Below are positions 39,124 to 63,605 of a DNA stretch of 64,000 nt, piece after piece. A program made the position numbers and the translations under genes. Where the stretch lies: IMG/VR virus record IMGVR_UViG_3300030419_006839, positions 40,852 to 104,851 of that record; one strand, given 5' to 3'. The notes below the pieces were generated by a model. It saw only the letters and a program-made list of their open reading frames with translations, was not told where the DNA came from and did no database searches. Within the stretch, counting starts at the first letter, position 1, and the number at the start of each line of letters is the position of its first letter. The stretch is from a virus.

Positions 39124-42100
39124 AAAACTTTTGAGAGTAAAGTGAGATCAAAATTGCGAGGTGATAACTATTGGGACTAAGAAGACTCTGCGGTGAAAAC
39201 TAAGCTATGACTGAACTTAACTGGTTATGACTGATAACCTTGTGGAGAAAAAAGATATTTAATTACACCTTAGTAAGAATTTATAAAAACTCTTTAGTAA
39301 AACAACTCCGAAAGACTTTAAACTTTCAAGTTTAATAGACGCATACAAAATCAAAAGGTTTAGACTAAATAACAATTTTTTAAAACTTTTTTTATTCCCT
39401 GGAGTGCTGGACTGCGAGATCGGTCATTGATGTCATTAGACTCCTCAGTTAAGATCAGTTATCATCCAGGAGTCTACGTAAGTCCCTCTTAGATCTCATA
39501 CGATCATATTTTTTCTTGGATTTTAACCGAATTGCACCAGGAGCAATCGGATGCCTAACCTTTACGCCTGGATTGCTAGACTCAGTAACTGATAGTGATC
39601 GGACTGCTTGCTTTTTTCGTTTAGTTCTTTTCATTTTTTTTAACCCCCTGTTTTCTGAGAAATCGGTAACTGAGAAATATGCCTTTTTTGGGCTGGACTG
39701 CTGGAGTGCTTGGGCTGGAGTGTTAATGTCCCCAAATACATTGAACATTCGTTATCATAATACATAAAATTCCCCGTCATCGTCATACCATGATGTGTTG
39801 TCATTAGTTATAATATTTCTATTTAAAAGCTCTTCTCTGACTTCATGTAAGCAGAACCCATTAAAAGGATCAAGGCTATCCCCCTTAAGGATAACCTTTT
39901 CAGCAAGTGATTTAATTTTACCAGAAAAGGAAAATACTGGAATTGTCTCAATGTGTTTAATGCATTTCATAATTTTCCCTACTAAAATCCCATGTTTTAT
40001 CTATGATTAGTTCTTTATACCATTGATCTATGTCAGATGGATGATCTGATTCAAACATATAATGAGCGAGAATATCAATTAATTCTTCTCCATTATAGGA
40101 ATCTATTTCAAATTTCGCTAATGCTTTAGCTTTTCCCCACGTATCTAACTTGATTCCCACTTTATATCCTCCTGATTGAAATATTCTCTGGATGTTTCAA
40201 GAAAATAATAAATCATATTCCAATCGTCTTGTTTAATTTCATTACCATTTTCTAATTCTTGAATTAAACAATGTACGCTATTAGCTATGTCTCCAAGACC
40301 AAATAAGGTAGTTCCACCTAACATAATTCCCACTTTATAGCCTCCTGAATACGTTTTACTTTATCTGGGTCTACATTATTGTTTGTAATTACAGTTGATT
40401 TTTCAACTAATTCTGGATATGCGTATAATGCTTTCTTCCATATTGCTTCAACTAAGAAATCTTCTTCCTCTACGAACTCTTTAGTAGACTGATAGATACA
40501 AACGGTGTCTGATATATTATGGTAAATTTCCCAAGCATCTATATCATCAAAGTACCTTATATCCTTTGATGAATACGATCCATAGTTTAGTATTATCTTG
40601 ACGCTAATTCCGTCATCTTTTCCAATAGCCATCTGTCTAAGATGTTCTACTGATTTTATTGGTATATACTCTGGCATCTATATTTCCTCCTTCAGTAAAT
40701 TAAGTCTATGTCTTATGATAGAAAATACATCCTTAGTAAAATCACACTTACTTATTGGATCATCAGTCAGTAATTTGATAACAGTTTCCGTAGAAACTAT
40801 GTCAAAGTATTTAAGTAAATCTTCTTCTATTTCCGTTCCTACTTTTGCAATTTGGTATTTTGTAAAGGGAATACCTCCAGCCATTTCAATCTACCTCCTC
40901 TAAAAAATATTCCTTAACATCTTCTATATTAGATATTACATACCTTATACACCATCCAGCTATTTCAATATCATCCCATTCTTCTGGAAAAACATAATCA
41001 TAATTTTTTAATAACTCATCCATTTCTCTTTTCATTGATATCCTTTCTTGGTATAATCATACCTGTTTTTGCATCAATAAACCAGAAATCATCTTCACTT
41101 ATTTCTTTAAAGCCCTGCGGTTTTCCTTGACTTCCTGTGTATTCCTCTATCTCGATTATTTCATTTTCTTTATAATCTTCTTCAAAAGGTATTGATTCTG
41201 AATAGTTATGTAAAAAGTTAAGAATACTATCTTCAGTTAATTCTTCTCCATTTGTTTCAATATACTGAACAGTAAAAAATGGAACTTTATACCAAATATC
41301 AACCCTATATTTCATTGTATCTCTCCTGTAACTTTTTGCAGATTAATTGGACAACCCCTTATTCCATACAGTTCAGAAAAATAATCATCTATGAAATTAC
41401 GGCAAGATTCAAAAATGTCAGTCTTTATATCATCTTCTCCATATAAACCTTCTATATCTTCAAGTAGAAAGTATAGTTTTACAATAATGGTTGATTTAAC
41501 TTCTTCCTTAACCTCTTTACTTTCTAATTGTAAACTCATACATAAACCCCTTAAAGAAAGGGGGAAATTAATCCCCCAATTGTGTTAGATTCTTACTTGT
41601 TTCTGTCCACCATAAATACGAACAGCTTGTTTTGTAGCATCTTTTTCTGACAAACCTTGTAGCATCAACAATTCTTGTACAGCTTTTGCCTTTGCTATTT
41701 CAGGATTTGCCACTCTTAACGCTTCTTTACCAGAACTGTAGAATGTTCCATCTTGTTTTGGTGTTTGCATTCTATAATTACTTGGTGAAACTCCAACTAA
41801 ACTATTAAAGGTTCTGCGATTAACAGCATCAACTTCCTCAACACCACCAATACGAAATAGAAAGTCATTAAAAGATCGACTAATTTGCTTTTGAGTTTCA
41901 ATAGCGGTTACAGGTGTTTGGAATTGATTGGTTACTACGTTGCTGTTAGTTACATATGTCATATCAAAATCTCCTATGCCTTATTTGGCATTAATTGTTT
42001 AGTGTGTAGGAACAACCTTTGCTCCTACTATATAATATCGACAGTTTCGAGAAAACTTTAGCGTTTTTTTAAAATTATTTTCAATGATGCGAAAATTCCT

Positions 42101-42250
42101 ACCAAACTCCACCAACTTACAGCAGATAGGAAAATGATAACGATTGCCACAATTCCATATGCGACAATTTTAAGCAAGAAATCAAACACATTGTTACTAC
42201 TCCTTTATTATATAATATCGACAGTTTTGAGAAAACTTTAGAGAAAAATA

Positions 42251-43120
42251 TTATAAATCTTCTCTAATTCCAACCATAACAGGAAATCTTGGATAACCAT
42301 CATCTGTTATTTCTTGATACTTTACAGTTGCAAGTTTTCCAATGTGGTCATCTTTATTTTTCCAGTATTCTTTTAATTCCTCCTTTGTTACGGATGGTCT
42401 AACCCTAAAGCTAACTTTTCCATCTGTAACTAAAAATGATCCTAAAACATTAGGATGGTTATTTTGTTCTACTGCATCGAGTATAGTATATTCGGAATCC
42501 TTGAAATATTTATACTTAAAAAGTTGATTACTTCGTTTGTTCTCATATGGTAAGTTGTCAATTCTTACCATTAAACCCTCATATCCACATTCTATAAAGT
42601 CTTGACAATATTTGTCAAACATTTGTAAACCCTTATACGATATATGACCTAAACTTATTGTCTCTACCGTTTTAATATAAGGACTTATAGATACAGGATG
42701 TGTATAAGCTAAACGACTAATTTCTCTTTTCCTGTTACTGAAACTAGAATCCATAACAACGTCAAAAACATGAAACTGTATTTCTTTATGGTTGTCATGT
42801 AAATTTTTAGTTCGTGAAACAATACTATTTATCTCTGAAAATGTTAATGATTCATTGAATAGTTCACCGTCTAACCACTCTAAAGAACGGAATGTGCTTA
42901 ATTTACCAACTTTAATTAATTCTTGATGTAAATGTGGACAACTTGTAACCTCTTTTCCTGAACGTTTGAACATCTTACCATTTTTTAAATTACCAACGAC
43001 TCTCACACCGTCAAGTTTTGGTTGGACAAACATTTCATGTTGATTGTGTTCTGTATAACTATTGACTTTTTTACGACTTGATTTATCAGACAAGTCGTGA
43101 GCCAACATTGGTTTAATCAT
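42251..43120 (-). CDS. ATP-dependent DNA ligase
   Basis: QPKLDGVR, LDGEL, FHVFD, YEGLMVR, LFKYK, PRFP. Confidence 0.95.
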   Translation of the reverse strand: MIKPMLAHDLSDKSSRKKVNSYTEHNQHEMFVQPKLDGVRVVGNLKNGKMFKRSGKEVTSCPHLHQELIKVGKLSTFRSLEWLDGELFNESLTFSEINSIVSRTKNLHDNHKEIQFHVFDVVMDSSFSNRKREISRLAYTHPVSISPYIKTVETISLGHISYKGLQMFDKYCQDFIECGYEGLMVRIDNLPYENKRSNQLFKYKYFKDSEYTILDAVEQNNHPNVLGSFLVTDGKVSFRVRPSVTKEELKEYWKNKDDHIGKLATVKYQEITDDGYPRFPVMVGIREDL

Positions 43121-44018
43121 TTTTTTCTCCTTCGTCCTATACTATATAATATCGACAATTTTGAGAAAACTTTAGCCCTTTTTTGAAAAAAAACCACTTT
43201 TTTTTAAATTTATTTTTTCTGGCAATATAGTATTTTTCTTTGATTGGGATGGTTGATGGCGTGGGGGCCATTGCGAGGATGTTAATCCTCGACAATTTTG
43301 TTATAGATTTGATCTACCTTTTCAATTAATAGATTTAGTTTGTGATTTTCTATACGTTTTAATTCTTCTTGCACATTTCCTACATACTTAGCCTGTAGTT
43401 CTTCAATCATATATTCCATACATCCCATAGCATCTAATAATAAAACAAAATTATTCATTACTTTTTTTTCAAAGCTTAAATTTGTTTTATCTTTTAATTC
43501 TCTGTTTTGTTTTCTTATTTGCCATAGGTCATATACTTCTTGATCTTCTTTAGATGGTATTGTGTCATTATTCATTATTGACTCCTTAAGCTGTTGGATA
43601 TTGTTGAAAAAAGTTAATTTCTAATTGTTTATAATCACCATTAGCTTCCTTTTTTTTGATCCACTCTTGTTCTTCATTAACAATTTCTGCTATTTTTTCT
43701 AAAAATTCTAAGTTATTAAACATATGCGGTTGTTCATATATTGATATATTATTTATTTCAATTGGTTTATAACCTTGTAGGTTGATTGTTACATCAACGG
43801 AACTAATCGTGCAATCATCATGTTGATGACCGTAATAATTAAATTCTTCCATAGTAAACATATCTTCGTCAAAATAGTCTATTTCAGGTAAAAAATCTTC
43901 AATCTCAAAAGAATCATTGCATTCTAAAGTTCCAGAAACAAGGCTTGAAACCTCTGTTCTAAAATGGACTTTATTAATAGTAATGTCTTTAGCACTAATT
44001 TCTTGTTTTAATTTTAAA

Positions 44019-44228
44019 TTATCCATAAATATCTAACTTTGCTCCTAAATTTGGGTTAGTAGATTTTGCCTTTTTTCTTTCATGTTTTGCTAAATCTAAA
44101 GTTGCTTCTATCCTTATTTCTCTTTTTGCATGTTGGATTTCATTGTATAATTGAAATTGTTCCAACGTACTAAAGTTTGCTATCCTACTTTGTCTCAAGA
44201 ATCTTGGATTCATGAATGTAGTTATCAT
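44019..44228 (-). CDS. Small protein with YjfB-like C-terminus
   Basis: Ends NPNLGAKLDIYG. Confidence 0.4.
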   Translation of the reverse strand: MITTFMNPRFLRQSRIANFSTLEQFQLYNEIQHAKREIRIEATLDLAKHERKKAKSTNPNLGAKLDIYG

Positions 44229-44853
44229 TACTCACTCCATACTTTAATAGCATTTGATTTAATCTCTGAAACATAAACATCTCCTAAATCATAACTTCCC
44301 CAATTTAAAGGTGATGAAACACCACAAAACCAACGAGCATTTTTATTCTTTGCTTCATTTGTTGGTGATTGCCATTTTTTTAAAACTTTCCAAGTCCATC
44401 CTTCAGCATTTCCAACACCTTTCCATATTTCATATGGTTCGTTTAAATTTCTAGTTTTTGCACAATAGTTTTTCTCTCTTGCCATTCAGTACTCCTTAAT
44501 TCGTTCTTTGTTCCTATTATATAATATCGACAATTCCTAGAAAACTTTAGCCTTTTTTTCAAAAAAAGTGCCTTTTTTTTGATTTAATTTTTTCTGTAAA
44601 ACATTATTACTTTATTATAGGACGTGTTGATGGGCCTGGGGCCATTGATTAGGCTAACATTTCAGATTCCATAATCATCTAAAAAAGTTTGACATATTAC
44701 TTGACATAATTCATCTGTCAGTCTGTCTTTGACTGAAGGTCTATTTGAATTTTCTTGCTCTAAGTCATCGAGGTAGTCATAACATGAATTAGATAGAACG
44801 GTTATAATATCTTCCTGTAGTTGTTCTCTGAGTTCTTTAAGTATTTTCATTGA

Positions 44854-45588
44854 TTATGCCACCTTTCCATACTTTATTTTTTCAATCTGTAATAAATTTT
44901 TAGATTCTCCATTTGCTTTAGCTCCATGATATTCGTAAGCTATACATTCGATATTTTCATTCCAACATGCACGACATTCTTGACATTGACCACCTTGCGA
45001 ACCACTTGGACAAAAATATATACCACTTTCTTTGTTGTCTTTATGCAAACTAAATTCATCTTTAGTTAAGACTACAGAATGTGTTTGATGTTGATTTGGT
45101 TTGAATGGTTTATTCTTAAACGGTGAGCTAACTCTAATGGTTAAATTTTCAGGTTTGTTTACAAACTGTTTTTTATGTTGCCATTCTTTTGTTGGTAGCC
45201 AATGGTTTATATGTGGCGTTTTTCTACAAATCTCATATATATCTGATAAGTGTTGTAAGTCAATAATATCTCCAGCATCAAACCATCTAAAAAATGGAAC
45301 TCGTTGCATTAATTTTGAATTGTTTAGAATAAAAACTACAGATTCTACCCATAATTTTCTATTGGATAAATATTTTTGATAACGATTTTCTAACGCATTT
45401 TTTACATTAGAAAATTTATATCGTCCATTATCTGCATAACATCCAAAACAAGCAGAACCCTCCACTTCGATCAATACAGATCCCGTATCACAATATTCTA
45501 CTGGAATATTCCATGAAAGTGCTGGCATTTTTCCTGCATCGCTTAATCCACCAATATTTTCATTTGCTTGTTTAATTGTAGTTACCAT
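44854..45588 (-). CDS. Gp88-like Cys-rich phage protein
   Basis: KMP..SWNIP, C..GS...SACFGCYA, FRWFDAGD, HWLPTKE, CP...CQECRACW. Confidence 0.75.
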   Translation of the reverse strand: MVTTIKQANENIGGLSDAGKMPALSWNIPVEYCDTGSVLIEVEGSACFGCYADNGRYKFSNVKNALENRYQKYLSNRKLWVESVVFILNNSKLMQRVPFFRWFDAGDIIDLQHLSDIYEICRKTPHINHWLPTKEWQHKKQFVNKPENLTIRVSSPFKNKPFKPNQHQTHSVVLTKDEFSLHKDNKESGIYFCPSGSQGGQCQECRACWNENIECIAYEYHGAKANGESKNLLQIEKIKYGKVA

Positions 45589-45765
45589 TTTATTCCTTTG
45601 TCTTAAGTTTAGGTTAATTGCTTCCTATTATATAATATCGACAATTACTAGAAAACTTTAGCCCTTTTTGTAAAAAAAGTCACTTTTTTTTGATTTTATT
45701 TTTTCCTACAAAGATTGGAATGTTTTGGAAATGGGATGGTGATCTCGCCTACGGCATTGAGAAGT

Positions 45766-46005
45766 AAAAAAAGCAAGCTACTCGCCCCTCGATGTTTACT
45801 TTGAGTCGAAACTCATGACTTATAATCTAAGCCATATTCAACACCTCTTTGTACTTTCGGAGTTTTCACTTGCCGATGAGAGCAACGTCCAAAGAATGGT
45901 AGATCTACGTAGGACTTCTAGAATGTTTTGTAGCGTGGATCAGACGCATCACTCATTATGGAATATCCGCATTCGGATCTTACATGCTTTTAAGCTCATC
46001 TTTCC
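45766..46005 (-). ncRNA. Candidate multi-hairpin non-coding RNA
   Basis: GC-elevated intergenic stretch with at least 5 hairpins including a UUCG tetraloop, ending in a stem plus U run. Confidence 0.45.
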
Positions 46006-46014
46006 TATAGAAAT

Positions 46015-46434
46015 TTATAAATCCATATGGTAACCGTAATCCTCATCTGTACCAAAACCTGCAGATGCTAATGCTTCGCCATCATCTGAATAATCATCCA
46101 CAGTATTTAATGAATCTGTATCATAAAATGCTTGTTGCCACCATGAATTAACTTGATTTGTTAGTTCCTCATAAATCCTTGCTTGAAGGAATTGAAAAAT
46201 ATTTTCACAACTTGAAATAGAAACAAATCCAGAATCAGATTCAAAACCCAAATCTGTATCATCTTTTAAGTATTCGATATACTCCCAATTTGATGTTGGC
46301 ATTTGACGGTCAATTTCTTCAGTAATTAACCTTTCACTGTCAAAAGTACTAAATTCTTCAGCACTCATGTTATCAATTTCTGATCTAATTTCATCACAAA
46401 TATTTTTTGCTAATCTTTCAACTTTAATAGACAT
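46015..46434 (-). CDS. Ocr-like (T7 gp0.3) DNA-mimic anti-restriction protein
   Basis: Acidic; DLGFESDSGF...FLQARIYEELT resembles T7 Ocr DLEFEDSGL...ILQARIYEQLT (recalled sequence). Confidence 0.75.
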   Translation of the reverse strand: MSIKVERLAKNICDEIRSEIDNMSAEEFSTFDSERLITEEIDRQMPTSNWEYIEYLKDDTDLGFESDSGFVSISSCENIFQFLQARIYEELTNQVNSWWQQAFYDTDSLNTVDDYSDDGEALASAGFGTDEDYGYHMDL

Positions 46435-46830
46435 AAATTAAACTCCTAAAAAAATTTCATCTTGACAAGTTTGACACAAACCAGAAATTCTATATTCTTT
46501 TTTTGATATATCATCTCTGAAATTTAGATTTACTTTGTGTGGTTCTTTTGAAACACAAGAATTGTTAGTAATTGATTCTGTTCTATCAAATAGAGAATCT
46601 AAAAATATTTCAATTGGTCTTGATTTTTTAGTTGGTTTCATAACTTACCTCTATTATATAATATCGACAGTTTCAAGAAAACTTTAGGAAAAAATCAATT
46701 ATTTTTTGAAAAAAACTGATTTTTTTTTCTTCAATTTTTGATTCTTTCTTTTTATATCTGACACCTGTATGTAGATTCAAATCTTCACTTTTTAGCTTTC
46801 TATTGACATTATCTGATCGCTTAAATTTTG

Positions 46831-46980
46831 TCATTCAGCTTTACCAAGTTTTATGTTGCCGTTGCTTTCCTCTACTTTTGGATCATCATCTTTTTTGAGT
46901 TTGGCTCGTTTGATTCTTGCTTTGTGCCTTGCAAGTCTAATTCGTTTTTTACGATTCTGTAATTTTCTAGTGTGTTTCAT
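46831..46980 (-). CDS. Very basic 49-aa peptide (not in the ORF track)
   Basis: MKHTRKLQNRKKRIRLARHKARIKRAKLKK...; GAGG SD; directly after promoter 47006-47031. Confidence 0.55.
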   Translation of the reverse strand: MKHTRKLQNRKKRIRLARHKARIKRAKLKKDDDPKVEESNGNIKLGKAE

Positions 46981-47845
46981 ATTTCCTCTTTACCTCTATT
47001 ATATAATATCGACAATTTTGAGAAAACTTTAGCCCTTTTTGTAAAAAAAAGCAACTTTTTTTTGATTTAATTTTTTCTGAGAATACCATAAACCTGTGTT
47101 ATACCTGCATTGGTGTGTTGGAATACATTGAGAACCTTATACATTCCACCCGTTTAATCTTAAATCGTTTAAATGTGATTGTAAAGGTTCCAATGTATCA
47201 GTATTTACTGTTATTATATGGTTGGTTTCAACGACTAAAACATCGCATTCTTGTTTTGACTTACCAGAAAAAGTATTTATTTTTTTTCTGGTAAATTCAC
47301 GAATGGATACATTTTTATTTATTGCTTTACAAAAGTGTGTTGCTACTTTCATTAGAAACTCCTAACAAAATCATGGAAGTCATACGTTGATAATAATTGA
47401 GTCATTCTTTTTTCTATTTCTGTTGCGTGTATAATATCAGCAAATTTTAGGTTTTCCATTATTCGATGATATGCAACTATTGGAGGAATACTGTTGTCTA
47501 AATTATCATACATTAAATTAAAATCTTCCTTCAATTCTGAAATTTGTTCTTTTGTTAGTTTGTTTTCCCATTCTCCAAGCTTCATTCTTTTATTTAAGCT
47601 ACCGCTTTTTGAGAATGATAACATTGTGTCAATCCTTACCTTTGAGGCTTTTCTGGTTAAATCATTTTTTTGTTCTTTAGTAAATGATTTTGACACACCA
47701 TCTAAAACTTTAGAAATAAACTCTTTTGAAATGTTTACTTGTTGGTTTGTTAGATCTGCTAAATTTTGCATGTTTACCTCTTTTGTATACTATATAATAT
47801 CGACAGCTTTGATGGAAACTTTAGGAAAAAAGTGATTTTTTTTTG

Positions 47846-48001
47846 CCCCATTTTTTGAAAAGTTGGCACGATTTATAATCACTTTTTTGCTTTGAATCAT
47901 TTTTTGAATCTTGAAACCCTTGCTATTACTCGCTTTGGCGAGATTGCAAATCCCCTTTTTTCTTTTCACCCTCAAAGAAAGAAAAAAGGGGTTTGTAATA
48001 A
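47846..48001. repeat. 156-bp repeat copy 1 with long hairpin
   Basis: CCCCATTTT...GTTGGCACGATTTATA...ACCCTTGCTAT...ATTGCAAATCCCC...GGGGTTTGTAATAA. Confidence 0.85.
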
Positions 48002-48905
48002 CCTGTAGTTATACAGTTAAGATTAAATCTAACTGACTTAATTTAATAAGTCAGTTAGTTTATTATCCCATAAAATAGTTGACAATCTTGATGCTATTTC
48101 ATATATATGTTCTTCCGCACAATCATTTCCATTTTCGTTTTCCTGAAATTTATATTCACAAAATTCCACATAATTATCATATTCTACCTCTAATAAATAA
48201 GTTAGTATAGTTTGTATATCAATTGATATATCAAAAATTAAATTAGATCTTTCTTGTTCAGTCATTTTCTTCTACTATTTCACTCCATAAAGAAATAAAA
48301 TTTTCAGACTCATAATACATAGATTTATATAGCAAGTCTTGTATTTCATCAATTGGATTACTTGAAGTTTCAATAATCCATCTTGCTATTTTTTCTAACT
48401 GTTTGTCATTGTATGGTTCTTTCATAATTATATACCCATAATCCACTTATCTAAAGCATAATTAAATTTATTCTTTTCTTTTATTGGATCAATTCCAACC
48501 TTATGAAAAGTGTAGTTTACTGAATCATCCATATAGTCATAATACGTTTGTTGATTGTCAAACTTTGGTGATTTTCTCTCATTATTATAAGAATTACAAG
48601 CTTCATTAAAACCATTGAAAATATCTTGAAAAATAGTGTTTTTGGTTGAAAGTTCTTTACCGTTCCAAATTACTTTTGGCATTCTAATATTCTCCTTCAA
48701 ATCTCTCATCTTTAATCATTGTTGCTTGAAATTTTGGGTCTAATTTCATATAGATAGTTTTAGGTTTTGACGGTTGTGCAAGATACATCTTGCCATCATC
48801 ATCAATAAATAAAACCTTAAACCAAATTCCGAGAATTTTAACTTCGTAATTTTCCATATTAGTAATTTACCTCTAATATATAATATCGACAGTTTTGAGA
48901 AAACT

Positions 48906-49067
48906 TTAGCTTTTTTTGATAAAGTTTTTTCCTAAAGTTTCGTAAACTCTTTTCATAAATTTTTCACGATTTTTTCTATATTCCTTAATTCTTTTCTGTT
49001 CTTTAGTTAAACCAATAACATCAATTTTTTCGTGTAAGTTATGAGGGATTGTTTTAATAATATTCAA
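48906..49067 (-). CDS. 53-aa paralog of ORF 50013..50168 (not in the ORF track)
   Basis: TTG start; IPHNLHEKIDVIGLTKEQKRIK...FMKRVYETLGKNFIK. Confidence 0.6.
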   Translation of the reverse strand: MNIIKTIPHNLHEKIDVIGLTKEQKRIKEYRKNREKFMKRVYETLGKNFIKKS

Positions 49068-49190
49068 GTTGTTACCCTATTGGTAAAATATTCTGGTTTA
49101 AATTTCTTGCATCTAAAACTTGTCGGTTCACAATGCACCACTTTCTATAAATATCAGTTTTTTGGATAGTAAGTTTTTTAATTTTTCTTA

Positions 49191-49346
49191 CCCCATTTTC
49201 TGGAAAGTTGGCATGATTTATAATCGCTTTTTTGCTTTGAATCATCTTTTGAATCCTTCAACCCTTGCTATCATTGGGTTTGAGGAGATTGCAAATCCCC
49301 TTTTTTCTTTTCACCCTTAAAGAAAGAAAAAAGGGGTTTGTAATAA
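49191..49346. repeat. 156-bp repeat copy 2
   Basis: Same length and blocks as copy 1. Confidence 0.85.
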
Positions 49347-49381
49347 GGTAGAGAAGGGCAGTTAAGCCCAACTCTATTGAT

Positions 49382-49786
49382 TTACTTATCTATAGTCATT
49401 TTTATTGTAGCAATATATACAACACCACTTTTATCAGTTTCTAGTTGTTGTGTTTCAACCCTTGATTTTTTTAGGGTATTTGTTTGCAAATAATCAGCTA
49501 ATTCTGTTCTTGCCATATGTTTTGCTTTATTTATAGCAAGTTGTACATTTCTACTTCTAGCCTGTTTTATAGTTGTTATTTTCTTTGGTGTTTCTATCAC
49601 TTTAGTTGTTGGTTCTAAAGGCATATTAATATTTTTAGAAGAACATCCAGAAACACATAAAAAAACTATACCTAAAATTAATATTGAACCTAAAACAAAA
49701 ACTGTTTCGATTGCATCCTTAATATCATCTTTAATGCTTGTTCTAATTTCTTGGTTTTGCAATTGATTTCCTTGATACATTTTCAT
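49382..49786 (-). CDS. LPP20-like lipoprotein
   Basis: Lipobox VSGC; 'ARSRNVQLAINKAKHMARTELA'. Confidence 0.5.
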   Translation of the reverse strand: MKMYQGNQLQNQEIRTSIKDDIKDAIETVFVLGSILILGIVFLCVSGCSSKNINMPLEPTTKVIETPKKITTIKQARSRNVQLAINKAKHMARTELADYLQTNTLKKSRVETQQLETDKSGVVYIATIKMTIDK

Positions 49787-50604
49787 ATTGCTTCCTCTTA
49801 TCTAATCCAGTTTGGGTTATCTTTATAGTGAAATGATTTTTTCCAATCCTCAAATTTTTCTGCTTGTTTGTCTATTTCATAATCTTCTATTGCATCCCAT
49901 AATCCTTCAACTATATCATGGAAAATATTTTTTTCATTTTTTGGCCTTAATTTTCCATTCCAATTAATTTCTAAATTGTTAGTAATCCCTTCTATTTTAT
50001 ACATTGTTATTCCTATTTTATAAAGTTTTTTCCTAAAGTTTCGTAAACTCTTTTCATAAAGTTCTCACGATTTTGTTGATATTTCTTGATTCTCTTTTGT
50101 TCTTTAGACAAACCAATAACATCAATTTTTTCGTGTAATTTGTGGGGTATCGTTTCAATAATTTTCATATTTTCCCTTTGTTCTCTACTATATAATATCG
50201 ACAGTTTCAAGAAAACTTTAGTAGTTTTTTACAATGAAATGTAACTTTTTGATGAATTAAATAACCAATTTTCAACTAGAAACTTATCAATTAGATTATT
50301 TCTATATGCGTTTAGAAATTCCTCATCAGTTACAGATAACAAACAATCATCCCATGCAAAAAAAGTATTTTCACCATCTTCTATTTCATAAACTCCATTT
50401 TCCCTATCTATTTTCGTGATAGCATAATAACGACTTTTTCGGTCTATGTTTCTAGTTGGAATGGTTTTTACGATTTGGCGAATGCTGTGGTTCATAATTG
50501 TATTTCCTCTTATACTATATAATATCGACAGTTTCTAAAAAACTTTAGAAAAAAAAACAACTTTTTCAAAAAATTTTCCAAAGTAAAAAAATAATTTTTC
50601 ACAC

Positions 50605-51774: not shown

Positions 51775-51804
51775 AATAACACAATTATAGATAAAATATT
51801 TACT
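51775..51804 (-). promoter_or_regulatory. Class II promoter
   Basis: AGTAAA-N17-TGTTATT upstream of ORF 51737. Confidence 0.6.
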
Positions 51805-52539: not shown

Positions 52540-52753
52540 GGTCTAACTTGTTATAGAATCAATTATTTTTTGAATGATTTTTTCAGTTAGGGTATCTATA
52601 AACTCATCTGTTTCATCCATTAATTTTTCTAGAACCATTTCAACGACTTTTTCTACTAATTCGTCACCTTGATCCTGAATTTCACTTACAACTTCATCTT
52701 TTAGCTTACCAGCTAAACTACTAGCTAAATCTCCAAATCCCATTACTTACCTC

Positions 52754-53365: not shown

Positions 53366-53373
53366 ATTGATAT

Positions 53374-53399
53374 AAAAAAAGCCCACCATTTCGGTGGGC
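53374..53399 (-). terminator. Intrinsic terminator after the SSB gene
   Basis: GCCCACC-gaaat-GGTGGGC followed by T7 on the - strand. Confidence 0.8.
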
Positions 53400-53412
53400 A
53401 ATTATTAGTTTT

Positions 53413-54291
53413 TTAGAAAGGTGAATCGTCTGATGCTGAATCAGAAGATATTTTATCTTGCATCATCTTCTTCAAATCAGCAGAAACATTATCGAAAGAA
53501 CTAGAGTTGGAATCGTTATTATTAAAACCATTACCATTTTGACTTCCACGATCTTCATGGACACCAGTTAGGTACTCTATTATCTCATCTCTAGTTCTGA
53601 TTCGATAATAATCCTCTAGGTTAATAGAGTTGTTTTTAACTAAGTCAGATTCTTCAGGACTTAGTGGTGATTCGTTTTTACCTGCAATAATTTCAAATTT
53701 CTGACCACCGAATCTATCAGGGTGGTACTTCAACAATAAATCATAACCAGACTTATCATCAGATGGATCTCCTCTATAAGACTCACTTAAAAAGTCTGCA
53801 TTAGGGTCACTTTCAGAAGGAGGAGTTGCCATTTCTACTAACTCATTAAATGGTGATTTCCTAAATCCAATAATACCCATCAATTCCTCTGGTGGTAAGC
53901 TTGACTTCTGTGCCATTCGGTCAATACAATTAATAGACGCTTGAAAAGTAGCTCTAGATGGTGTTGCATCCTTACCCCAAGAAGGAGGAGGCTGTTTAAA
54001 CGAGCAAAAACCTAAATCTGAGTGCTTTTCACCTTTTAGCTGAAGGTCATATACTTCATCAATTGGACACTTTCCATCTATACGAAGTATAGTAGATCCA
54101 CTATAGTCATAATTTATACATGGAATAACAATAGTAACTGATGTTCCCGTTGTCTTCTCAACTTCAATGAAATGTAGTTGTCTTCGTACAATATCTCCTA
54201 CTAGTCTTACTCTTGGATTTTTTTTCCAATCAATAAAGTTTGCCTTTGGTAAACTACCTGTGTTTTCAGCTTTAAGTTGTCCTAATTTCAT
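53413..54291 (-). CDS. Single-stranded DNA-binding protein (gp32-like)
   Basis: 'VRLVG', 'INCIDR', 'GDPSDDKSGYDL', acidic tail ending DDSPF. Confidence 0.7.
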   Translation of the reverse strand: MKLGQLKAENTGSLPKANFIDWKKNPRVRLVGDIVRRQLHFIEVEKTTGTSVTIVIPCINYDYSGSTILRIDGKCPIDEVYDLQLKGEKHSDLGFCSFKQPPPSWGKDATPSRATFQASINCIDRMAQKSSLPPEELMGIIGFRKSPFNELVEMATPPSESDPNADFLSESYRGDPSDDKSGYDLLLKYHPDRFGGQKFEIIAGKNESPLSPEESDLVKNNSINLEDYYRIRTRDEIIEYLTGVHEDRGSQNGNGFNNNDSNSSSFDNVSADLKKMMQDKISSDSASDDSPF

Positions 54292-54359
54292 TTTTTCATT
54301 TCTCCATTTAATTTTAATTATTTTTGTTTTTAATTGGCTTAATTGCCTTACAATTTAAA

Positions 54360-54385
54360 TTATCGACTGTTTTTAGTTAACTTTA
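54360..54385 (-). promoter_or_regulatory. Class I (sigma28-like) promoter for the SSB gene
   Basis: TAAAGTTaactaaaaacaGTCGATAA. Confidence 0.7.
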
Positions 54386-54396
54386 ATTTTTTTATT

Positions 54397-54508
54397 AAAA
54401 AAAAAGAAGAGTAGTTTAATTAAGCTATATTGAAGGATGGATACAGCTTTATGTCGGGTAAAGACAAAGAACTACTCTTCTATTAAGGAGTCACACAAAC
54501 AACCAACA
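54397..54508 (-). ncRNA. Candidate ~110-nt small RNA
   Basis: Own class II promoter, 12-bp closing stem (54405-54416/54470-54481), two inner hairpins, U run. Confidence 0.55.
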
Positions 54509-54513
54509 CACTA

Positions 54514-54543
54514 TATAACGTGATTTATGTTTGTTTATTTACT
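54514..54543 (-). promoter_or_regulatory. Class II promoter
   Basis: AGTAAA-N17-CGTTATA. Confidence 0.68.
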
Positions 54544-54549
54544 AAATAT

Positions 54550-56187
54550 TTAACTTTCTTGACTTGTTGAAGCTATTTGATTGATTGATAACTGAATATC
54601 ATCAATTTTGTCTTCTAGGTTATCTAATCTATTTTCAGTTTCCTCTTTAGGAAGTGAATAAGATTTAAACATTGCATCTCTCTCACTCAAACTAGCAGCA
54701 ATAGCATCAGTTAGGTCAGAATCCTCTAGTTCTTCTAAACCAGTAGGTAATCCTGGATTTGGTAATTCTAAGCCATTAGAGCCTATTTTAGAGCCTTTAA
54801 GTGTCATCTTAAGGGGTACATCACCCCACTCGACTTCAGGTAGTCCGAATCTATGTTTTCTAACATAATTTATTGTTAAAACACCTTCCATTAATTGTTG
54901 TCTGTCTAAATCCCATTGTTCTTGTTCATCTAAAGATTTTTCCAATCCCCAATCTAAATATACATCTCTATACCCAAAACCACCTTTGTGTCCAATTTTA
55001 GGGTTTGGTAAAGACCAAATCAATTCAGAATTTAAATGATATGCAAAGGTGGATAACTGAGGAATTAAGGCATCTTTTTCAAACTGTTCTTGTTGTTGTT
55101 CTGAGTTAAGCTTACCTGTGTTGGGTGTTACCATACCTAAAACTAATGGTTGCATGTTAAAAACAGACATTATTTGTTCCAACATCCATTGACTATATTG
55201 CTTAAAAGACATTTCACTTGGAGCTAAACCTACTTTTTCTATTTTAACAGATCCTTCACCCTCTCCAGTAGAGATTAATATAGGTCTATGTGGTTTTCCC
55301 CTTAAGTTGTTATCCCAGAATTTTTGATATTCCTGTAATCTTTCTAGGGATACATTATTAAACAATACAGCTAATCTTGGAGTTGCATCATTACCAAAAA
55401 GTGCTGAATTATAGTTCTCAACTCTTGTTGCATTAACTACAGTTTTTGCTAATGTTTCTATTTTTGAAGTCCCATAAGGTGTTCCAGATCTTGGATTCAT
55501 TACCATATATATAAGTTCGTCTATACCATACCAAACACCACTTAAATGACTTGAGTTTTTCTTTTCTGAATCAGTCATAAATATATTGGTAAACCCTCTA
55601 TCTTGATCATCATAATCATGACCAGAGCTTTGAATGTCAGATTTTTCAAAGTAGCATTTATTGAAATTTATAAAATTCCCAGATTTATCTGTATTTAATA
55701 CAAAACTAGGAGAATGGGCAGCATATATTTCTACAGGCATACCAAATTCATCACGAACTATCTCCAAACAACCTGCATCATAAACTAACATATCTCTGTC
55801 AAGTTTTTGTCGAATTGAACTAAAAGATTCTCTACTTGAGTTTGGATTTATAACTAAGTCTGCTAGTTTTTCAATGTGACGCATTTGTTGATCGCTTGGG
55901 TTTGATGCATCATTGTCTGGAGTTGCAATAGGAACTATTTCTGGTGGGATTAAACTTAATCTAGTTACAATTTTATCAACACATGCACGAATCCATGTAT
56001 TTTTTTCATAAATTAACCTCATCTCATCAAAAGTTAAGTAGTCAACAGTGTTTCTTTCAAGCGAAATCCTTCTTTCTTCTCCAATTTCAACCCTTCGCTT
56101 TCTCTTTTTTATTGCGTTGGTTGTATTTAGTTTTAAAGAGGGTCTTTGCATAGAAAGAATTTTATTTGATTTTGTAAAAGAAATCAT
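54550..56187 (-). CDS. Phage portal protein
   Basis: IRACVDKI, DMLVYDAG.LEIVRD..G.PVEIY, PYGTSKIE, EMSF, IMSVFNMQP..LG, LTINYVR. Confidence 0.9.
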   Translation of the reverse strand: MISFTKSNKILSMQRPSLKLNTTNAIKKRKRRVEIGEERRISLERNTVDYLTFDEMRLIYEKNTWIRACVDKIVTRLSLIPPEIVPIATPDNDASNPSDQQMRHIEKLADLVINPNSSRESFSSIRQKLDRDMLVYDAGCLEIVRDEFGMPVEIYAAHSPSFVLNTDKSGNFINFNKCYFEKSDIQSSGHDYDDQDRGFTNIFMTDSEKKNSSHLSGVWYGIDELIYMVMNPRSGTPYGTSKIETLAKTVVNATRVENYNSALFGNDATPRLAVLFNNVSLERLQEYQKFWDNNLRGKPHRPILISTGEGEGSVKIEKVGLAPSEMSFKQYSQWMLEQIMSVFNMQPLVLGMVTPNTGKLNSEQQQEQFEKDALIPQLSTFAYHLNSELIWSLPNPKIGHKGGFGYRDVYLDWGLEKSLDEQEQWDLDRQQLMEGVLTINYVRKHRFGLPEVEWGDVPLKMTLKGSKIGSNGLELPNPGLPTGLEELEDSDLTDAIAASLSERDAMFKSYSLPKEETENRLDNLEDKIDDIQLSINQIASTSQES

Positions 56188-56513
56188 ATTATTCCTCCTA
56201 ATCGTCTTCTTCTAAGTTTTCTATTTCAGGTTGAAGTAAAATTCGATCATTAATAAAAGCAGAGAAAAGACTTATCAGAAGTAAGTTTAAAGAAGAAAGA
56301 TAAGAATCTTCATATGCTTTGAATGCAGATAATAATAAACAAGAGATAAATATTATCGCAGTTAAAAATTTTAAATAAATATCTAAATCTAAAGTTATAA
56401 AATATCGTACAAAGTTGTAAACTTTTCTAAAAATTGATTTAATAAATCTAATTATACCTTCTACAATTAAAACTTGAAAGTTAAATATTTCTTCTAGTAT
56501 TTCTCCAGAGTAT

Positions 56514-57512
56514 TTAATAAAGTTCACTAAGATAGCCAAAATAACCACCGTCCTTTGGTTTAGCATTTGTTTTTATTGTATATATAACACCAGCAATAGC
56601 TTGAATTAAATCATGACTACCACCTGGAGGGTGGTCATATTTGTTTCCAACTCTTTCTAGTTGTCTTAACTCTTTGTGTGGTAGGTTAACTTCACCTTCA
56701 GGTGTTTTAACATTTAATGGATACATATTTATTCTTTTTTCATAAATAGCTTTAATCAACTCATCAAAAGGTTCAGTTGTTCTATCTATAGATAAGGTAT
56801 CGGCATCCATTCCTACAGCTTTCATGTTTTGTATAAAGTCTGCTGATTGGTAACCATCTAAAGTTACCCTATGTATATTATATCCTCTTTTGATTACATC
56901 AAAAATTATTTGTCTAATTGCTATTAATTGAACTGGACTTTCTTTATAACCTTTAAATGATGCTAGTAAATCAAAGGAGACTATTGGTTCTTTTATTTTT
57001 CTCACTCTATTTTGTGCATCTCTTTGTTCTTTTTCTACCCAATCTTCTGCATGACCTACAGCCAAACCTAGTCGATCTTGAGTTAATCCTATATCAACGT
57101 GGCAATATCTTCGTATGTGATCTTGACAAATAAAATCATCTCTAAAAACGGTATTAACTACTTCACCATTTGGTTGTAGGAACGGATTTTTTATAATTGG
57201 ATGTTTAAAATCTTTTAGTTTTTCAAAAGATTTTTCAATAAACTCTGAGTGTTCAATAGCAGGAGCGACTGCATCAATTGGATTAGCACCAAAATCTCTC
57301 GTAGCTAATGCAGGGTTTCTTAGAAACTCATCCATATAACTTTCTATTGTTTGGGTATCTCTCATTCTCCAAGTAGGTGCTTGTATTGCAAGAGATTTGT
57401 CAAATTTAAACATTCTGACATCATAATCGTACTTTTCTTTGACAAAATCTGGATTTAAAGAGGTTCTACTACTATAGTCTTGCTCTAAAGAGAAAATTGA
57501 TTCATCACTCAT
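56514..57512 (-). CDS. Terminase large subunit, C-terminal nuclease part
   Basis: APTW, HVDIGLTQDRLGLAVGH, VTLDGYQS, YDHPPGGSHDL; close to the portal gene. Confidence 0.85.
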   Translation of the reverse strand: MSDESIFSLEQDYSSRTSLNPDFVKEKYDYDVRMFKFDKSLAIQAPTWRMRDTQTIESYMDEFLRNPALATRDFGANPIDAVAPAIEHSEFIEKSFEKLKDFKHPIIKNPFLQPNGEVVNTVFRDDFICQDHIRRYCHVDIGLTQDRLGLAVGHAEDWVEKEQRDAQNRVRKIKEPIVSFDLLASFKGYKESPVQLIAIRQIIFDVIKRGYNIHRVTLDGYQSADFIQNMKAVGMDADTLSIDRTTEPFDELIKAIYEKRINMYPLNVKTPEGEVNLPHKELRQLERVGNKYDHPPGGSHDLIQAIAGVIYTIKTNAKPKDGGYFGYLSELY

Positions 57513-57868
57513 TTAAAAATACCAAAAAGAAATGAGAAAAATCCTTTCTTTTTCTCTTTTTCTATTATTTTTTCTGCTACTTTTTCAGAATCTATCTTAT
57601 ATTCTGAATTTTGTACACGTTCCCTTAAATCCTTCAGTTGTTGTTCTCTATCTGGATCAATTTCATTCTGTTTTTGTATGAAATCTAGGTTTTCCATTTC
57701 TTTTTTTTCGTTTTCACCTGAAAATTCAAAAATAGCTTTAACAATTTCTATTTCTTCATTTGTAAGGCTTTCTAGGTGACTTTTTAATACAAAATCTGTT
57801 CCTTTAGAGATTTCTATTAAATGTTTTGAATTTGTACCCAATTCTTTTGCTAACTCGTAAACTCTCAT
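57509..57868 (-). CDS. IF2_N domain fused to FlgM-like anti-sigma28 domain
   Basis: MRVYELAKELGTNSKHLI...LKSHLESL (IF2_N); DREQQLKDLRERVQNSEYKIDSEKVAEKII (FlgM C-terminal pattern). Confidence 0.72.
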   Translation of the reverse strand: MRVYELAKELGTNSKHLIEISKGTDFVLKSHLESLTNEEIEIVKAIFEFSGENEKKEMENLDFIQKQNEIDPDREQQLKDLRERVQNSEYKIDSEKVAEKIIEKEKKKGFFSFLFGIFK

Positions 57869-57877
57869 TACAACCTC

Positions 57878-58240
57878 CTAAAAGTCGTGCAAATAAATAG
57901 AATTTATTCTTTTTTCTCTTTTTTCTTTACGTAATTTATTTTGTCTTTTCTTGTATTTTTTCAAATCTTTTTTGTGTTCTTCTTTGAAGTCTGAAGCGAA
58001 ACCAACAACCCTATATATTTTTAACATAATAGCAAAAACGGCTACGGCACTTGTTCCACCAACGCTCATTGCAATACTTTCACCAATCTCAGGAAATTCA
58101 TTAAATATAGGAGCAAGTAGTCCCAAAATACCACCTAAACTTGCAAATTTAGACCATGTGGTATCATGAACCCTATCTATTCTCTTATCATACTCCTCAT
58201 CTATTAATTCCTCTTGGTCTTTCATTGCTATTATTCCCAA
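57878..58240 (-). CDS. Membrane protein (2 TM) between the terminase halves
   Basis: Two hydrophobic helices and a basic tail. Confidence 0.55.
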   Translation of the reverse strand: MGIIAMKDQEELIDEEYDKRIDRVHDTTWSKFASLGGILGLLAPIFNEFPEIGESIAMSVGGTSAVAVFAIMLKIYRVVGFASDFKEEHKKDLKKYKKRQNKLRKEKREKRINSIYLHDF

Positions 58241-59025
58241 AAATCTCTTCTATTACCACTAATTGCTATTTCTCTCATTTTCCTTACCGCAAAAGAATCT
58301 GTAGATTTTGGACTAGTTATAACTATTATTTTATAGTGATCTGGAAACCTTGTCTTACAACTACCTAAGAGTGAATTGTATATCTCATTTGCTGCGGATT
58401 TGTTCATATTATCTACAAACCAATCTGCTTCATCGAGTATTCCTTGTTTTGTATTATAACCCAACCAAGCAGTTGATTTTGAATGACCACAAACTCCAAT
58501 TATGTTTTTGGGAAAAATTATTCTATCTTTTGTATCAATATAGTATGGAACCCTGTGTCCATCTAAACTAGATAGTTCAAAAGCACTTTCCACTTCAAAA
58601 AAACACTTTGAATGTTTTAACTTTTCTCTAAGGTCAGTAAAAACTACATCCCTGGCTTGGTGTTGGTTTGTTGCCATATTTAAAAAATAAATGTGAGTTC
58701 CTACCGCTAAACTACTATATCTTTGTGGGTTTTTTAACATTGCAGTTTGCCAGATACCTCTACACTGATAAATAGATGAGTTAAAACTCTTTCCAGAACC
58801 TTTTCCTAGTACCAACCAAGCTTCTCTAACTTCAGGATCATCTACGTGCTTTAATAGACTTAAATTAGCATCTGAAATATCTAGAGATAAGTCCATATAG
58901 TCTTCACTCAGTATAAATTCCTCCATATCGACATTTTTTGTTTCATAATCACCATCAGATTGTGAAACTTCTATCCTTTTTTTTAATTCATCAGCAAAAT
59001 TTCCTAATAAAGATCCAGAATTCAT
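58231..59025 (-). CDS. Terminase large subunit, N-terminal ATPase part
   Basis: Walker A LGKGSGKS, NMATNQHQA, Walker B GILDEA, motif III ITSP. Confidence 0.85.
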   Translation of the reverse strand: MNSGSLLGNFADELKKRIEVSQSDGDYETKNVDMEEFILSEDYMDLSLDISDANLSLLKHVDDPEVREAWLVLGKGSGKSFNSSIYQCRGIWQTAMLKNPQRYSSLAVGTHIYFLNMATNQHQARDVVFTDLREKLKHSKCFFEVESAFELSSLDGHRVPYYIDTKDRIIFPKNIIGVCGHSKSTAWLGYNTKQGILDEADWFVDNMNKSAANEIYNSLLGSCKTRFPDHYKIIVITSPKSTDSFAVRKMREIAISGNRRDFWE

Positions 59026-59750
59026 GGTAACTCTCCTGAAGTTAGTTTTTTAATACTTTCTGCCATTTCTATTTTTTTATTTTCGGCTATGTCTGCTTCC
59101 AATATGACTCCCATAACTTTCTCTATCATACCTCTGATCTCAGATACGTTTACCATTATTTTCAACTTTGCTTCTAATTCCATTAGGTTTGTTATGGTTG
59201 TTGTTATTTGCTGTATTAATTTTTGACTACTTCTAATGTCTTTTGCTTCAGGATAATCTCCATGTGCAGAAACATTGTACTGTAAGTATGTTCTCAATAG
59301 GGCTAATTCACCTCTTAGGTCATGTAATTGAGGATTGTCATATTCATCTTGCCAAATATTATATATTTCTGAGTTTTTCTCTATCTTGGGTATAAAACCT
59401 GTTTGAGTTTTTTGAAACTTACTACTATGGTTGTCCATAAATGATTCTCTTATCTCAAGGTCTGTTTTTTTACTATTGGACATATCAACAGTCTCCGATG
59501 TTTGGTTTTTAGATGCACCAACAGTTGGTTTTACATTGCCATGAGAAATACAAAAATCATATCTTACTCCAGTATTAACCCATTTATCTGTATCTGGGTC
59601 TTTAACGTAGTGAAATGGTCTATCTTTTTGGCAAGATGCTCTATCTACACCACAATTTGGACACTTAGTCAGTTCTTTAGATCTACCATAGTGATAGTCG
59701 CAATTTCTACAAGTAGATACTGGATAGCCACATTTTAAGTTTTCAGACAT
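59022..59750 (-). CDS. Putative terminase small subunit
   Basis: N-terminal Cys cluster with CISHG, 'DLRGELALLR' helix; overlaps the TerL start. Confidence 0.55.
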   Translation of the reverse strand: MSENLKCGYPVSTCRNCDYHYGRSKELTKCPNCGVDRASCQKDRPFHYVKDPDTDKWVNTGVRYDFCISHGNVKPTVGASKNQTSETVDMSNSKKTDLEIRESFMDNHSSKFQKTQTGFIPKIEKNSEIYNIWQDEYDNPQLHDLRGELALLRTYLQYNVSAHGDYPEAKDIRSSQKLIQQITTTITNLMELEAKLKIMVNVSEIRGMIEKVMGVILEADIAENKKIEMAESIKKLTSGELP

Positions 59751-60242
59751 TTAAAAAATCCTATATTTATAATTAACCAATTTATCTATATTAAAAATCT
59801 TAAGAGGTTTTAAATATTCCAAAACATAACCTCCCCACTTCCATTCCTCATCAACAATGAAAGATTTCCTATTATTATCACACCAATTATTATACGAACT
59901 TATAGGTATTGCATAAGTTTTAGCTTTATTTAGAAAGCTAACCTTATTTTCAAACCCCATAGACATTATAACATATGATTTGCATCTATTTTTAGCAAAA
60001 TGAGATAGAGATTTTCTTTGGTGTTTTTTTAATTGACTTTTTTGTATTCTATCTTTTTTCGTGTATTTTAGTTCTAATGTAGTAAAACTTTTATCAAAAA
60101 ACCAAAAGTCACAAGGTTTTTCAAACCTAGCAAACCTTCCCATTTCTTCAGGTCTAAACCAGTAAAAATCTCTGTCTAAAAATCTATTTTTTTCTTGATA
60201 GAATATTAAAGTTTTTTCAAAAGCTTTTTCTTGTATGTTCAT
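59751..60242 (-). CDS. RecU-like Holliday junction resolvase
   Basis: PCDF...LELKYT...LKKHQ PD-(D/E)XK pattern. Confidence 0.7.
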   Translation of the reverse strand: MNIQEKAFEKTLIFYQEKNRFLDRDFYWFRPEEMGRFARFEKPCDFWFFDKSFTTLELKYTKKDRIQKSQLKKHQRKSLSHFAKNRCKSYVIMSMGFENKVSFLNKAKTYAIPISSYNNWCDNNRKSFIVDEEWKWGGYVLEYLKPLKIFNIDKLVNYKYRIF

Positions 60243-60251
60243 AGGTTATCA

Positions 60252-61929: not shown

Positions 61930-61931
61930 TT

Positions 61932-62760: not shown

Positions 62761-62790
62761 AATAACAAGTTTTTTTGAGTTTGTTTTACT
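62761..62790 (-). promoter_or_regulatory. Class II promoter heading the nuclease/packaging operon
   Basis: AGTAAA-N17-TGTTATT. Confidence 0.62.
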
Positions 62791-62804: not shown

Positions 62805-62830
62805 TAAAGTTATTTATTATTGGTCGATAA
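62805..62830 (+). promoter_or_regulatory. Class I (sigma28-like) promoter of the sigma-like gene
   Basis: TAAAGTTatttattattgGTCGATAA. Confidence 0.72.
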
Positions 62831-62864: not shown

Positions 62865-63605
62865 ATGAATAAGCAAACAATTTTAAAAGCATATAACGGT
62901 GATACAATAGCAAAAACTCAAACATACAACCACTATAGAAAAGTCTTGAAAAGTATGCTATATGGGTATAATTTTGATTTAGATCCTTCAATTTGTTCAG
63001 AAGATGTTGCTCAAGTGGCATTACCTGAAGCAATGAAGAGATTTTTTAAGAATTTAGACACTAATCAGATTGATAAGTTTGATTCATTTGCTAAATCTAA
63101 TATTAATTTTGCAATAAAGCATTTCATACAGTCTCAGAAGTCAAAAAATAATGGTCGAAGGTTGTTTTTTAGTATGGATGCACCTAAGAAATCTTCAAGT
63201 GTTGAAAAAAGTGGTGATTTTTTCTATCATGAAGACATAAAGAATGAAAGATGGTCTATGGAGGAGAAATTAGTTTATGGGGATACTAAGGATGAAATGT
63301 TGAAGCTGATTTCTAAAGCACAGGTTAAATCTCAGGGTTTTAAATCATTAAATCCAAAGTTTACTGAGATTGCAAAAGAGGTTATTTCTGGAAATAGTTG
63401 TAGAACCAACTTAGCTAAAGATTATGATCTATCAATATCATCTATTACTAGGTTTATTACAGAAATTATGTATCCGTGTTGTTTAATGGCTATTGATAAG
63501 CATACAACGTATAAAAGAATGGGTCAACACCTAAATAAAAGTGCAAAAGGGTTAATCGTACAGGAAAAGGGTACGGAATTTGCTAAGAAAGTAGGTTATA
63601 TTTAA
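62865..63605 (+). CDS. Putative phage RNA polymerase sigma factor (divergent)
   Basis: 'KAYNGDTIA', region-2-like 'EDVAQVALPEAMKRF...KFDSFAKSNINFAIKHFI', 'FSMDAP', HTH 'NLAKDYDLSISSITR'; RBS AAAGGA before ATG 62865. Confidence 0.65.
   Translation: MNKQTILKAYNGDTIAKTQTYNHYRKVLKSMLYGYNFDLDPSICSEDVAQVALPEAMKRFFKNLDTNQIDKFDSFAKSNINFAIKHFIQSQKSKNNGRRLFFSMDAPKKSSSVEKSGDFFYHEDIKNERWSMEEKLVYGDTKDEMLKLISKAQVKSQGFKSLNPKFTEIAKEVISGNSCRTNLAKDYDLSISSITRFITEIMYPCCLMAIDKHTTYKRMGQHLNKSAKGLIVQEKGTEFAKKVGYI

Follow-up and report, generated by a model that had tools for sequence, protein, structure and literature searches.

AsiA of phage T4 is a phage-encoded anti-sigma factor, and to our knowledge the phage anti-sigma factors described so far have the housekeeping sigma factor as their target. 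In bacteria, sigma-28 (FliA), which is the flagellar sigma factor, is bound by the C-terminal two-helix part of FlgM, and the flagellar export signal of FlgM sits in the N-terminal half of the protein. Another phage-encoded anti-sigma factor is gp39 of phage P23-45 (PMC3950348). The sigma-28/FlgM complex of Aquifex aeolicus has been solved (PDB 1RP3/1SC5), the sigma-28 promoter consensus of E. coli is TAAAGTTT-n11-GCCGATAA (PMC2859248), and temperate phages have been described that carry flagellin plus TldR regulators (PMC13418256). Our search of the literature turned up no paper that describes a FlgM encoded by a phage or sigma-28 promoters before the early genes of a phage. The parts of the phage protein described here are of known kinds; their combination and the use that we propose for it are new.

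The DNA analysed, referred to below as the window, comes from an uncultured phage and is the right-hand 64 kb (64,000 nt) of an IMG/VR virus record of 104,851 bp, which is estimated to be 73% complete. The minus strand of the window carries, at 57509..57868, an ORF encoding a 119-aa protein that is made up of an IF2_N head, a FlgM-like segment and a hydrophobic tail, and in which the matches to the two Pfam families exceed the respective cut-offs. This protein is called the chimera in the following. A Shine-Dalgarno sequence, AGGAGG (57874..57879, minus strand), is recognizable in the sequence 5 nt 5' of the ATG; it overlaps the stop codon of the upstream gene and makes a strong ribosome-binding site. 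At the other end, the TGA stop of the chimera gene and the ATG of the downstream gene, which encodes the C half of the large terminase (TerL), share the tetranucleotide ATGA, an overlap that had been pointed out in the preliminary description of this DNA and is present in the sequence. The G+C content is 26.9% for the chimera gene and 31.7% for the window, thus the composition gives no sign of a recent import.

The chimera gene is the eighth of eleven genes in an operon that runs on the minus strand from 62711 to 54550, includes both TerL halves and the portal gene, and has no gap longer than 10 nt. No minus-strand terminator was found along this operon before 53399-53381. A free-standing LAGLIDADG endonuclease gene (60252-61340, minus strand; Pfam LAGLIDADG_3, E 9e-8) is also located inside the operon, flanked by a 198-aa ORF on one side and a RecU-like resolvase gene (phrog_843) on the other. 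On the opposite strand, an ORF with T5orf172/MUG113 (GIY-YIG-like) domains at 51988-52539 (plus strand) lies beside a SMC/RecF-like ORF (52754-53401).

The chimera gene had been described as lodged between the halves of the terminase, and the flanking ORFs bear this out. The N half, the ATPase (58231..59025, minus strand), matched phrog_2 with an E value of 2e-8 and contains the Walker A sequence GKGSGKS and a DEAD box, and the C half, the nuclease (56514..57512, minus strand), matched phrog_17415 with an E value of 6.6e-5; the two families match successive parts of TerL in separate ORFs. Two genes are present between the halves. The first (57878..58240, minus strand) encodes a predicted membrane protein of 120 aa with hydrophobic stretches, for which no family was found in Pfam, PHROGs or NCBIfam, and the second is the chimera gene. 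A similarly divided TerL was found in a 120-kb viral contig (G001, locus L012), the N half of which is 31% identical to that of the window (E 2e-34) and has the same end point, and the C half of which is 28% identical to 56514..57512 (E 1e-30) and is 503 aa in length against 332 aa in the window. The split point after ITSP[KR] is common to the window (56514-59025) and to L012. Three ORFs, unrelated to the two of the window, lie between the TerL halves at L012:2782-7494, and the gap of each phage holds one small membrane protein. The occurrence of the same split in a distant relative means that the split is ancestral and that the gap is a slot for variable cargo. An Rfam search of 50000-64000 returned nothing, with no sign of a group I or group II intron between the TerL halves, and PDB sequence searches with the halves gave nothing useful. 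A TerL assembled by a split intein (a 'fractured gene') was considered and rejected, as the halves leave no room for intein parts and have no intein end motifs.

The Pfam profile of FlgM (PF04316, curated cut-off 25 bits) matched the chimera with 30.9 bits (E 3.2e-7) at residues 65-103, corresponding to 57560..57676 on the minus strand and covering positions 16-55 of the 55 positions of the profile. The preliminary description had assigned residues of about 70 to 103 to FlgM, and this predicted sigma-28-binding segment is in good agreement with it. In a six-frame scan of the genome the same match gave 31.7 bits. For comparison, FlgM of E. coli itself reached 38.1 bits and the homologues P0002 and P0003 of the chimera 26.4 and 31.1 bits, respectively; all four homologues exceeded the curated cut-off. 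The next matches over the segment were coiled-coil noise with E values of about 0.03, and the FlgM match, which spans only about 40 residues of charged helix, is five orders of magnitude better. Pairwise alignments fell on the FlgM motif as well, with E 0.022 for residues 48-85 of Aquifex FlgM (1rp3_B) and E 2e-4, as a single comparison, for residues 66-87 of E. coli FlgM. The motif of the C-terminal FlgM helices, G/S-x-Y-x-[VI]-D-x-x-K-[IV]-A, is present in the chimera, for which helices were predicted at residues 73-87 and 94-107 by a model of low confidence. P0002 carries the substitutions D93N and A98V at two conserved positions of the motif. The full-length FlgM equivalog of NCBIfam, TIGR03824, gave 21.7 bits against a cut-off of 40.75, with only model positions 57-98 matched, which is expected because only the C-terminal part of FlgM is present. 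By these profile and pairwise matches, residues 65-103 share homology with the two helices at the C-terminal end of FlgM.

Other searches with this part of the protein returned little. A word-index search with residues 62-108 retrieved the chimera's own cluster alone. The ESM Atlas structure neighbours of residues 56-119 were generic helical hairpins; a FlgM cluster came first (TM 0.51), to which we give no weight. An AlphaFold2 model of the chimera built from four sequences had a mean pLDDT of 46, too poor for fold comparison. A separate observation concerns P0022, a secreted-looking protein of 330 aa, which contains six copies of the FlgM-motif-like sequence DL.TLKRWI.NGEFRLSRSKAQGII.KQRN and scored 23.2 bits on PF04316, under the cut-off.

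Complex prediction was performed with residues 49-119 of the chimera and E. coli FliA, a stand-in for the sigma-28 factor of the host, and supported binding weakly, with a score of 0.53 against 0.00 for the best of three controls. At least 50% of the contacts agreed between the runs, and the pLDDT of the partner was at least 58. In the calibration, 58 of 80 solved complexes attained the mark, as did 2 of 110 mismatched pairs. Just 7 of the 80 solved complexes, but both of the passing mismatches, attained it with a score of 0.60 or less; since the prediction used our own alignment, these counts apply only approximately. As the sigma-28/FlgM complex has already been solved, the score of 0.53 may show likeness to it only.

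The sigma-28-type motif TAAAGTT-N11-GTCGATA, named class 1, has 16 copies in the window, where 0.03 would be expected, and 17 in the genome, and every copy is aimed at a nearby downstream ORF. It is a nearly exact match to the E. coli sigma-28 consensus. The genes preceded by class-1 motifs are dnaE, a gene for a DenV-type glycosylase (denV), the DNA ligase gene, a GP88-family gene, many small ORFans and a sigma-like gene. Eleven near-identical copies are clustered in the early region at 42036..50547 on the minus strand, the genes of which include those for the DNA ligase and the GP88-family protein. These eleven copies share a longer block, CTAAAGTTTTCTnnAAAnTGTCGATATTATATAATAG, that runs into a perfect TATAAT. 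The block might represent a start region common to these copies or an additional promoter overlapping the first, and its running into TATAAT means that a different holoenzyme may act in the early cluster. We rejected the idea that the class-1 motif is a sigma-70 promoter, as there is no acceptable -35 element 16-18 nt upstream of the TATAAT, and as copies outside the early cluster (13912 and 54361) keep the sigma-28-type core without TATAAT.

A second promoter-like motif, AGTAAA-N17-YGTTAT (class 2), was found 5 times in the window against 0.06 expected, and one of the copies (62762..62790, minus strand) stands at the head of the eleven-gene operon, inside which no sigma-28-type motif was found. 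Class-1 and class-2 motifs are arranged in tandem before three genes, namely dnaE, a 292-aa gene after the portal gene and a 508-aa gene, at 13912-13968 and 54361-54543 in the window and at about -33008 to -32942 to the left of it. The second of these sites consists of a sigma-28-type promoter directly after the portal gene (54361..54385, minus strand) and a class-2 motif at 54515-54543. Transcription of the genes behind such tandem motifs may take place in two phases. In the related phage G001, both the sigma-28-type motif and FlgM are absent, and the sigma-28-type motif was not found in the T4-like loci that encode relatives of the chimera with its head and tail (see below). Among the phages examined, a FlgM segment together with sigma-28-type promoters occurs in this phage only, which supports the FlgM reading.

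The reading that we prefer, to which we assign a probability of about 0.5, is that the chimera is a non-exportable anti-sigma-28 factor of the FlgM type that would bring the early transcription of the phage to an end. The late timing of the chimera is deduced from gene content only.

The sigma factor to be bound would most simply be that of the host, and a second candidate is encoded by the phage. An orphan sigma-70-family-like gene is located at 62865..63605 on the plus strand, behind a sigma-28-type promoter at 62805..62829 on the same strand that was recognized by motif match. Its product matched Pfam Sigma70_r2 with an E value of 0.041, and its best NCBIfam match was FliA with an E value of 0.085. 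The search returned no homologues of it, its nearest ESM Atlas clusters were viral Sigma70_r2 proteins (score 0.96), and a single-sequence model had a pLDDT of 41, too poor for fold comparison. The FlgM-like segment might therefore be directed to this protein and not to host FliA; the phage sigma would then be a diverged FliA-type reader of TAAAGTT-N11-GTCGATA, and the chimera the cognate anti-sigma factor that ends the early phase. Such a pairing would agree with the weak Sigma70_r2 and FliA matches and with the grouping with viral sigma factors by ESM Atlas features, and the class-1 promoter on the gene would suit positive autoregulation. However, the very first genes cannot need a protein that has yet to be made, unless the virion brings it along, and the simplest explanation for a near-exact bacterial sigma-28 consensus is that the phage uses the host factor. 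Moreover, none of the matches of the sigma-like protein comes near the cut-offs, and its model is as poor as stated. We consider it distinctly unlikely that the phage's own sigma-like protein is the target.

The N-terminal residues 1-48 of the chimera (57725..57868, minus strand) scored 35.8 bits on the IF2_N profile of Pfam (PF04760, curated cut-off 25.3 bits), in line with the earlier assignment of the first 45 or so residues to this domain. The head aligned with residues 4-59 of Thermus thermophilus IF2 (E 0.005) and has 44-53% identity with the IF2 N-termini encoded by many bacterial genes on metagenome contigs; when the metagenomes were scanned, nearly all matches were bacterial IF2 genes. 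The Pfam search that the preliminary description had proposed for both domains thus gave matches above the cut-offs for IF2_N (35.8 against 25.3 bits) and FlgM (30.9 against 25 bits). Its claim that the export half of FlgM has been replaced also held, as IF2_N, a folded domain, stands at the N-terminus and the alignment with E. coli FlgM has no likeness before the motif, where the disordered part of FlgM with the export signal would lie. The N1 (IF2_N) sub-domain of E. coli IF2-alpha has been reported to bind NusA (PMC12297416), and by analogy the head may give the chimera a role at NusA and RNA polymerase. The chimera shares with IF2-alpha N1 about 48 first residues that pass the PF04760 cut-off; it differs in that the GTPase and other IF2 domains are missing after the head.

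The C-terminal tail, KKKGFFSFLFGIFK (57512..57553, minus strand), is a candidate membrane-targeting helix that is invariant in the four homologues. Its final residues, EKEKKKGFFSFLFGIFK, are similar to those with which E. coli MinD ends, EEEKKGFLKRLFGG: both sequences stand at the extreme C-terminus and consist of a lysine run, then G-F and then a short hydrophobic stretch with L-F-G. In the chimera the basic residues come first and the hydrophobic ones follow, with a mean hydrophobicity of 0.70 and a hydrophobic moment of 0.42. The phage tail is less amphipathic and more evenly hydrophobic than that of MinD. The resemblance to a membrane-targeting helix that the preliminary description had noted is borne out by the MinD-like sequence. 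The tail may be a membrane anchor, and it may equally well dock onto another protein. The C-termini of the DNA polymerases of phages that encode proteins with this head and tail, [ST]LE[GSD]FF, are loosely similar to the tails; by comparison with T4 and RB69, we take these polymerase ends to be clamp-binding.

The whole architecture of the chimera was found in one cluster of near-identical proteins only, among 1.84 billion representative proteins. In a sensitive search, all matches beyond the three near-identical homologues were via the head only, save one repeat protein. Four sequences are known, and they hardly differ in the head, the FlgM segment or the tail; the FlgM segment is conserved in P0001-P0003, and P0003 has a 15-residue deletion, which is confined to the linker between the head and the FlgM segment. 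This pattern fits separate modules. The PHROGs collection has no family for the chimera, and none for the head-and-tail relatives described next. Among the 50,697 cultured-phage records of INPHARED, no homologue of the chimera was found, the relative from locus L009 gave a single short, meaningless match, and the 6-kb region had no DNA match.

The head (IF2_N, 35-44 bits), together with a similar tail, recurs in small proteins from nine of the ten viral loci L002-L011. These relatives start with MRVYELAKE, have acidic linkers of 70-170 residues that are unrelated to one another, and close with a conserved tail, for example GFWGWLKGLF or GFFGWFKGLFGG, following the pattern G/T-F-W/F-G-W-L/F-K-x-L/I-F; none of them gave a FlgM match. 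L008 has the head alone, as the last part of a longer open frame, and at L007 the ORF is interrupted by the contig end. The neighbours of the genes are always a DNA polymerase gene, sometimes with a small nuclease gene, on one side and genes for a UvsX-like recombinase and a DnaB-like helicase on the other. Examples in uncultured T4-like phages are L002:8001-8375, L003:5467-6120, L009:8001-8543 and L011:2367-2846, among others. From their sequences, the IF2_N head, variable linker and conserved tail define an undescribed family of small phage proteins, the members of which may, by analogy with IF2, be NusA-docking proteins. As head and tail are common to proteins of T4-like phages that lack the FlgM piece, the chimera is a FlgM module built into a phage scaffold that already existed, at the place of the linker, and is more than a FlgM that has received another N-terminus.

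The existence of relatives without the FlgM piece also means that the scaffold serves an independent function, possibly the main one. The FlgM likeness might then be convergent or functionless, with head and tail doing the job, the former on NusA or another partner of IF2 N1 and the latter on the membrane or the sliding clamp. The frequency of head-and-tail proteins with mutually unrelated linkers, the restriction of the more distant matches to the head (apart from the one repeat protein), the reported binding of NusA by IF2 N1 (PMC12297416) and the loose likeness of the tails to the polymerase C-termini would all be in keeping with this. However, the FlgM match stands five orders of magnitude above the coiled-coil noise and exceeds the cut-off in four homologues, it occurs among the phages examined only where there are 17 sigma-28-type promoters, and the segment is conserved, unlike the preceding linker, which can be lost. 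We therefore regard a FlgM segment devoid of function as unlikely.

A further link to the flagellum is a flagellin gene of the phage at 29555..30439 on the plus strand, which matched the NCBIfam flagellin models with an E value of 5e-25. No close relative of it was found among 185,579 species genomes, no tRNAs were found, and the best match of the phage DnaE, 31% to a Muribaculaceae MAG, is uninformative on the host. The flagellin gene shows an interest of the phage in the flagellum, and it is conceivable that the chimera protects or stores sigma-28 instead of silencing it, or that it mainly stops flagellum synthesis by the host, for example against superinfecting phages that depend on the flagellum. 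Both versions would draw on the same FlgM homology as the preferred reading, FlgM has been reported to guard FliA against proteolysis, and a paper by Barembruch and Hengge (2007), cited in PMC9266447, states in its title that FlgM modulates the proteolysis of FliA. The chimera gene is, however, grouped with packaging genes rather than with the early genes, for which a stabilised sigma-28 would be needed, and nothing in the analysis indicates the flagellum as the receptor of the phage. Both versions are, in our judgement, very unlikely.

With the chimera read as a non-exportable anti-sigma-28 factor, the following course of infection can be proposed. Infection would begin with RNA polymerase to which a sigma-28-type factor is bound, in the simplest case host FliA, which would be free in cells with completed flagella because such cells export their own FlgM. 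One of the early products would be the phage sigma-like protein, a possible reader of the class-2 promoters. The chimera would be produced alongside the packaging proteins and bind sigma-28, whereby the early genes of the phage and the late flagellar genes of the host would be switched off and core polymerase set free. It would not be pumped out like host FlgM, because the export signal is missing. More speculatively, the head would position the chimera at NusA and RNA polymerase, and the tail would keep the captured sigma factor at the membrane.

In its fullest form, this proposal would have the phage take the flagellar checkpoint as its developmental clock. The phage would infect cells from which FlgM has been exported and run its early and replication genes on sigma-28; the non-exportable chimera, held at RNA polymerase by its NusA-directed head and at the membrane by its MinD-like tail, would then silence sigma-28, and the polymerase would pass to the phage sigma, the scaffold itself belonging to a new and widespread NusA-docking family. 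We regard this picture as doubtful. If true, a phage FlgM together with early promoters of the sigma-28 type would be a new way of timing the lytic cycle, infection would be linked to the motile state of the host, and a domain swap would have made a secreted bacterial regulator cell-bound. The shared IF2_N head hints that there may be a wider phage family acting on NusA and on the coupling of transcription and translation.

Compared with bacterial FlgM, the chimera has the same C-terminal helix-turn-helix motif, LRERVQNSEYKIDSEKVAEKII, and in both proteins the segment lies near the C-terminus. It differs in having IF2_N instead of the export half and an added hydrophobic tail, and its gene is located in a phage packaging operon and not beside flgN or flgA, with no sigma-28-type promoter before it. 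With the phages that carry flagellin and TldR (PMC13418256), this phage shares a flagellin gene and, as proposed here, an interference with the control of host flagellar genes; theirs is an RNA-guided repressor of host fliC in the lysogen, whereas here a FlgM-like protein, a probably lytic phage and flagellar-type promoters on phage genes are involved. Like AsiA and gp39, the chimera would be a small phage protein that retargets host RNA polymerase via its sigma factor at a change of gene class. However, AsiA and gp39 are early or middle proteins of unrelated sequence that hit the housekeeping sigma factor, whereas the chimera would hit the flagellar sigma factor and would be derived from the host's own inhibitor.
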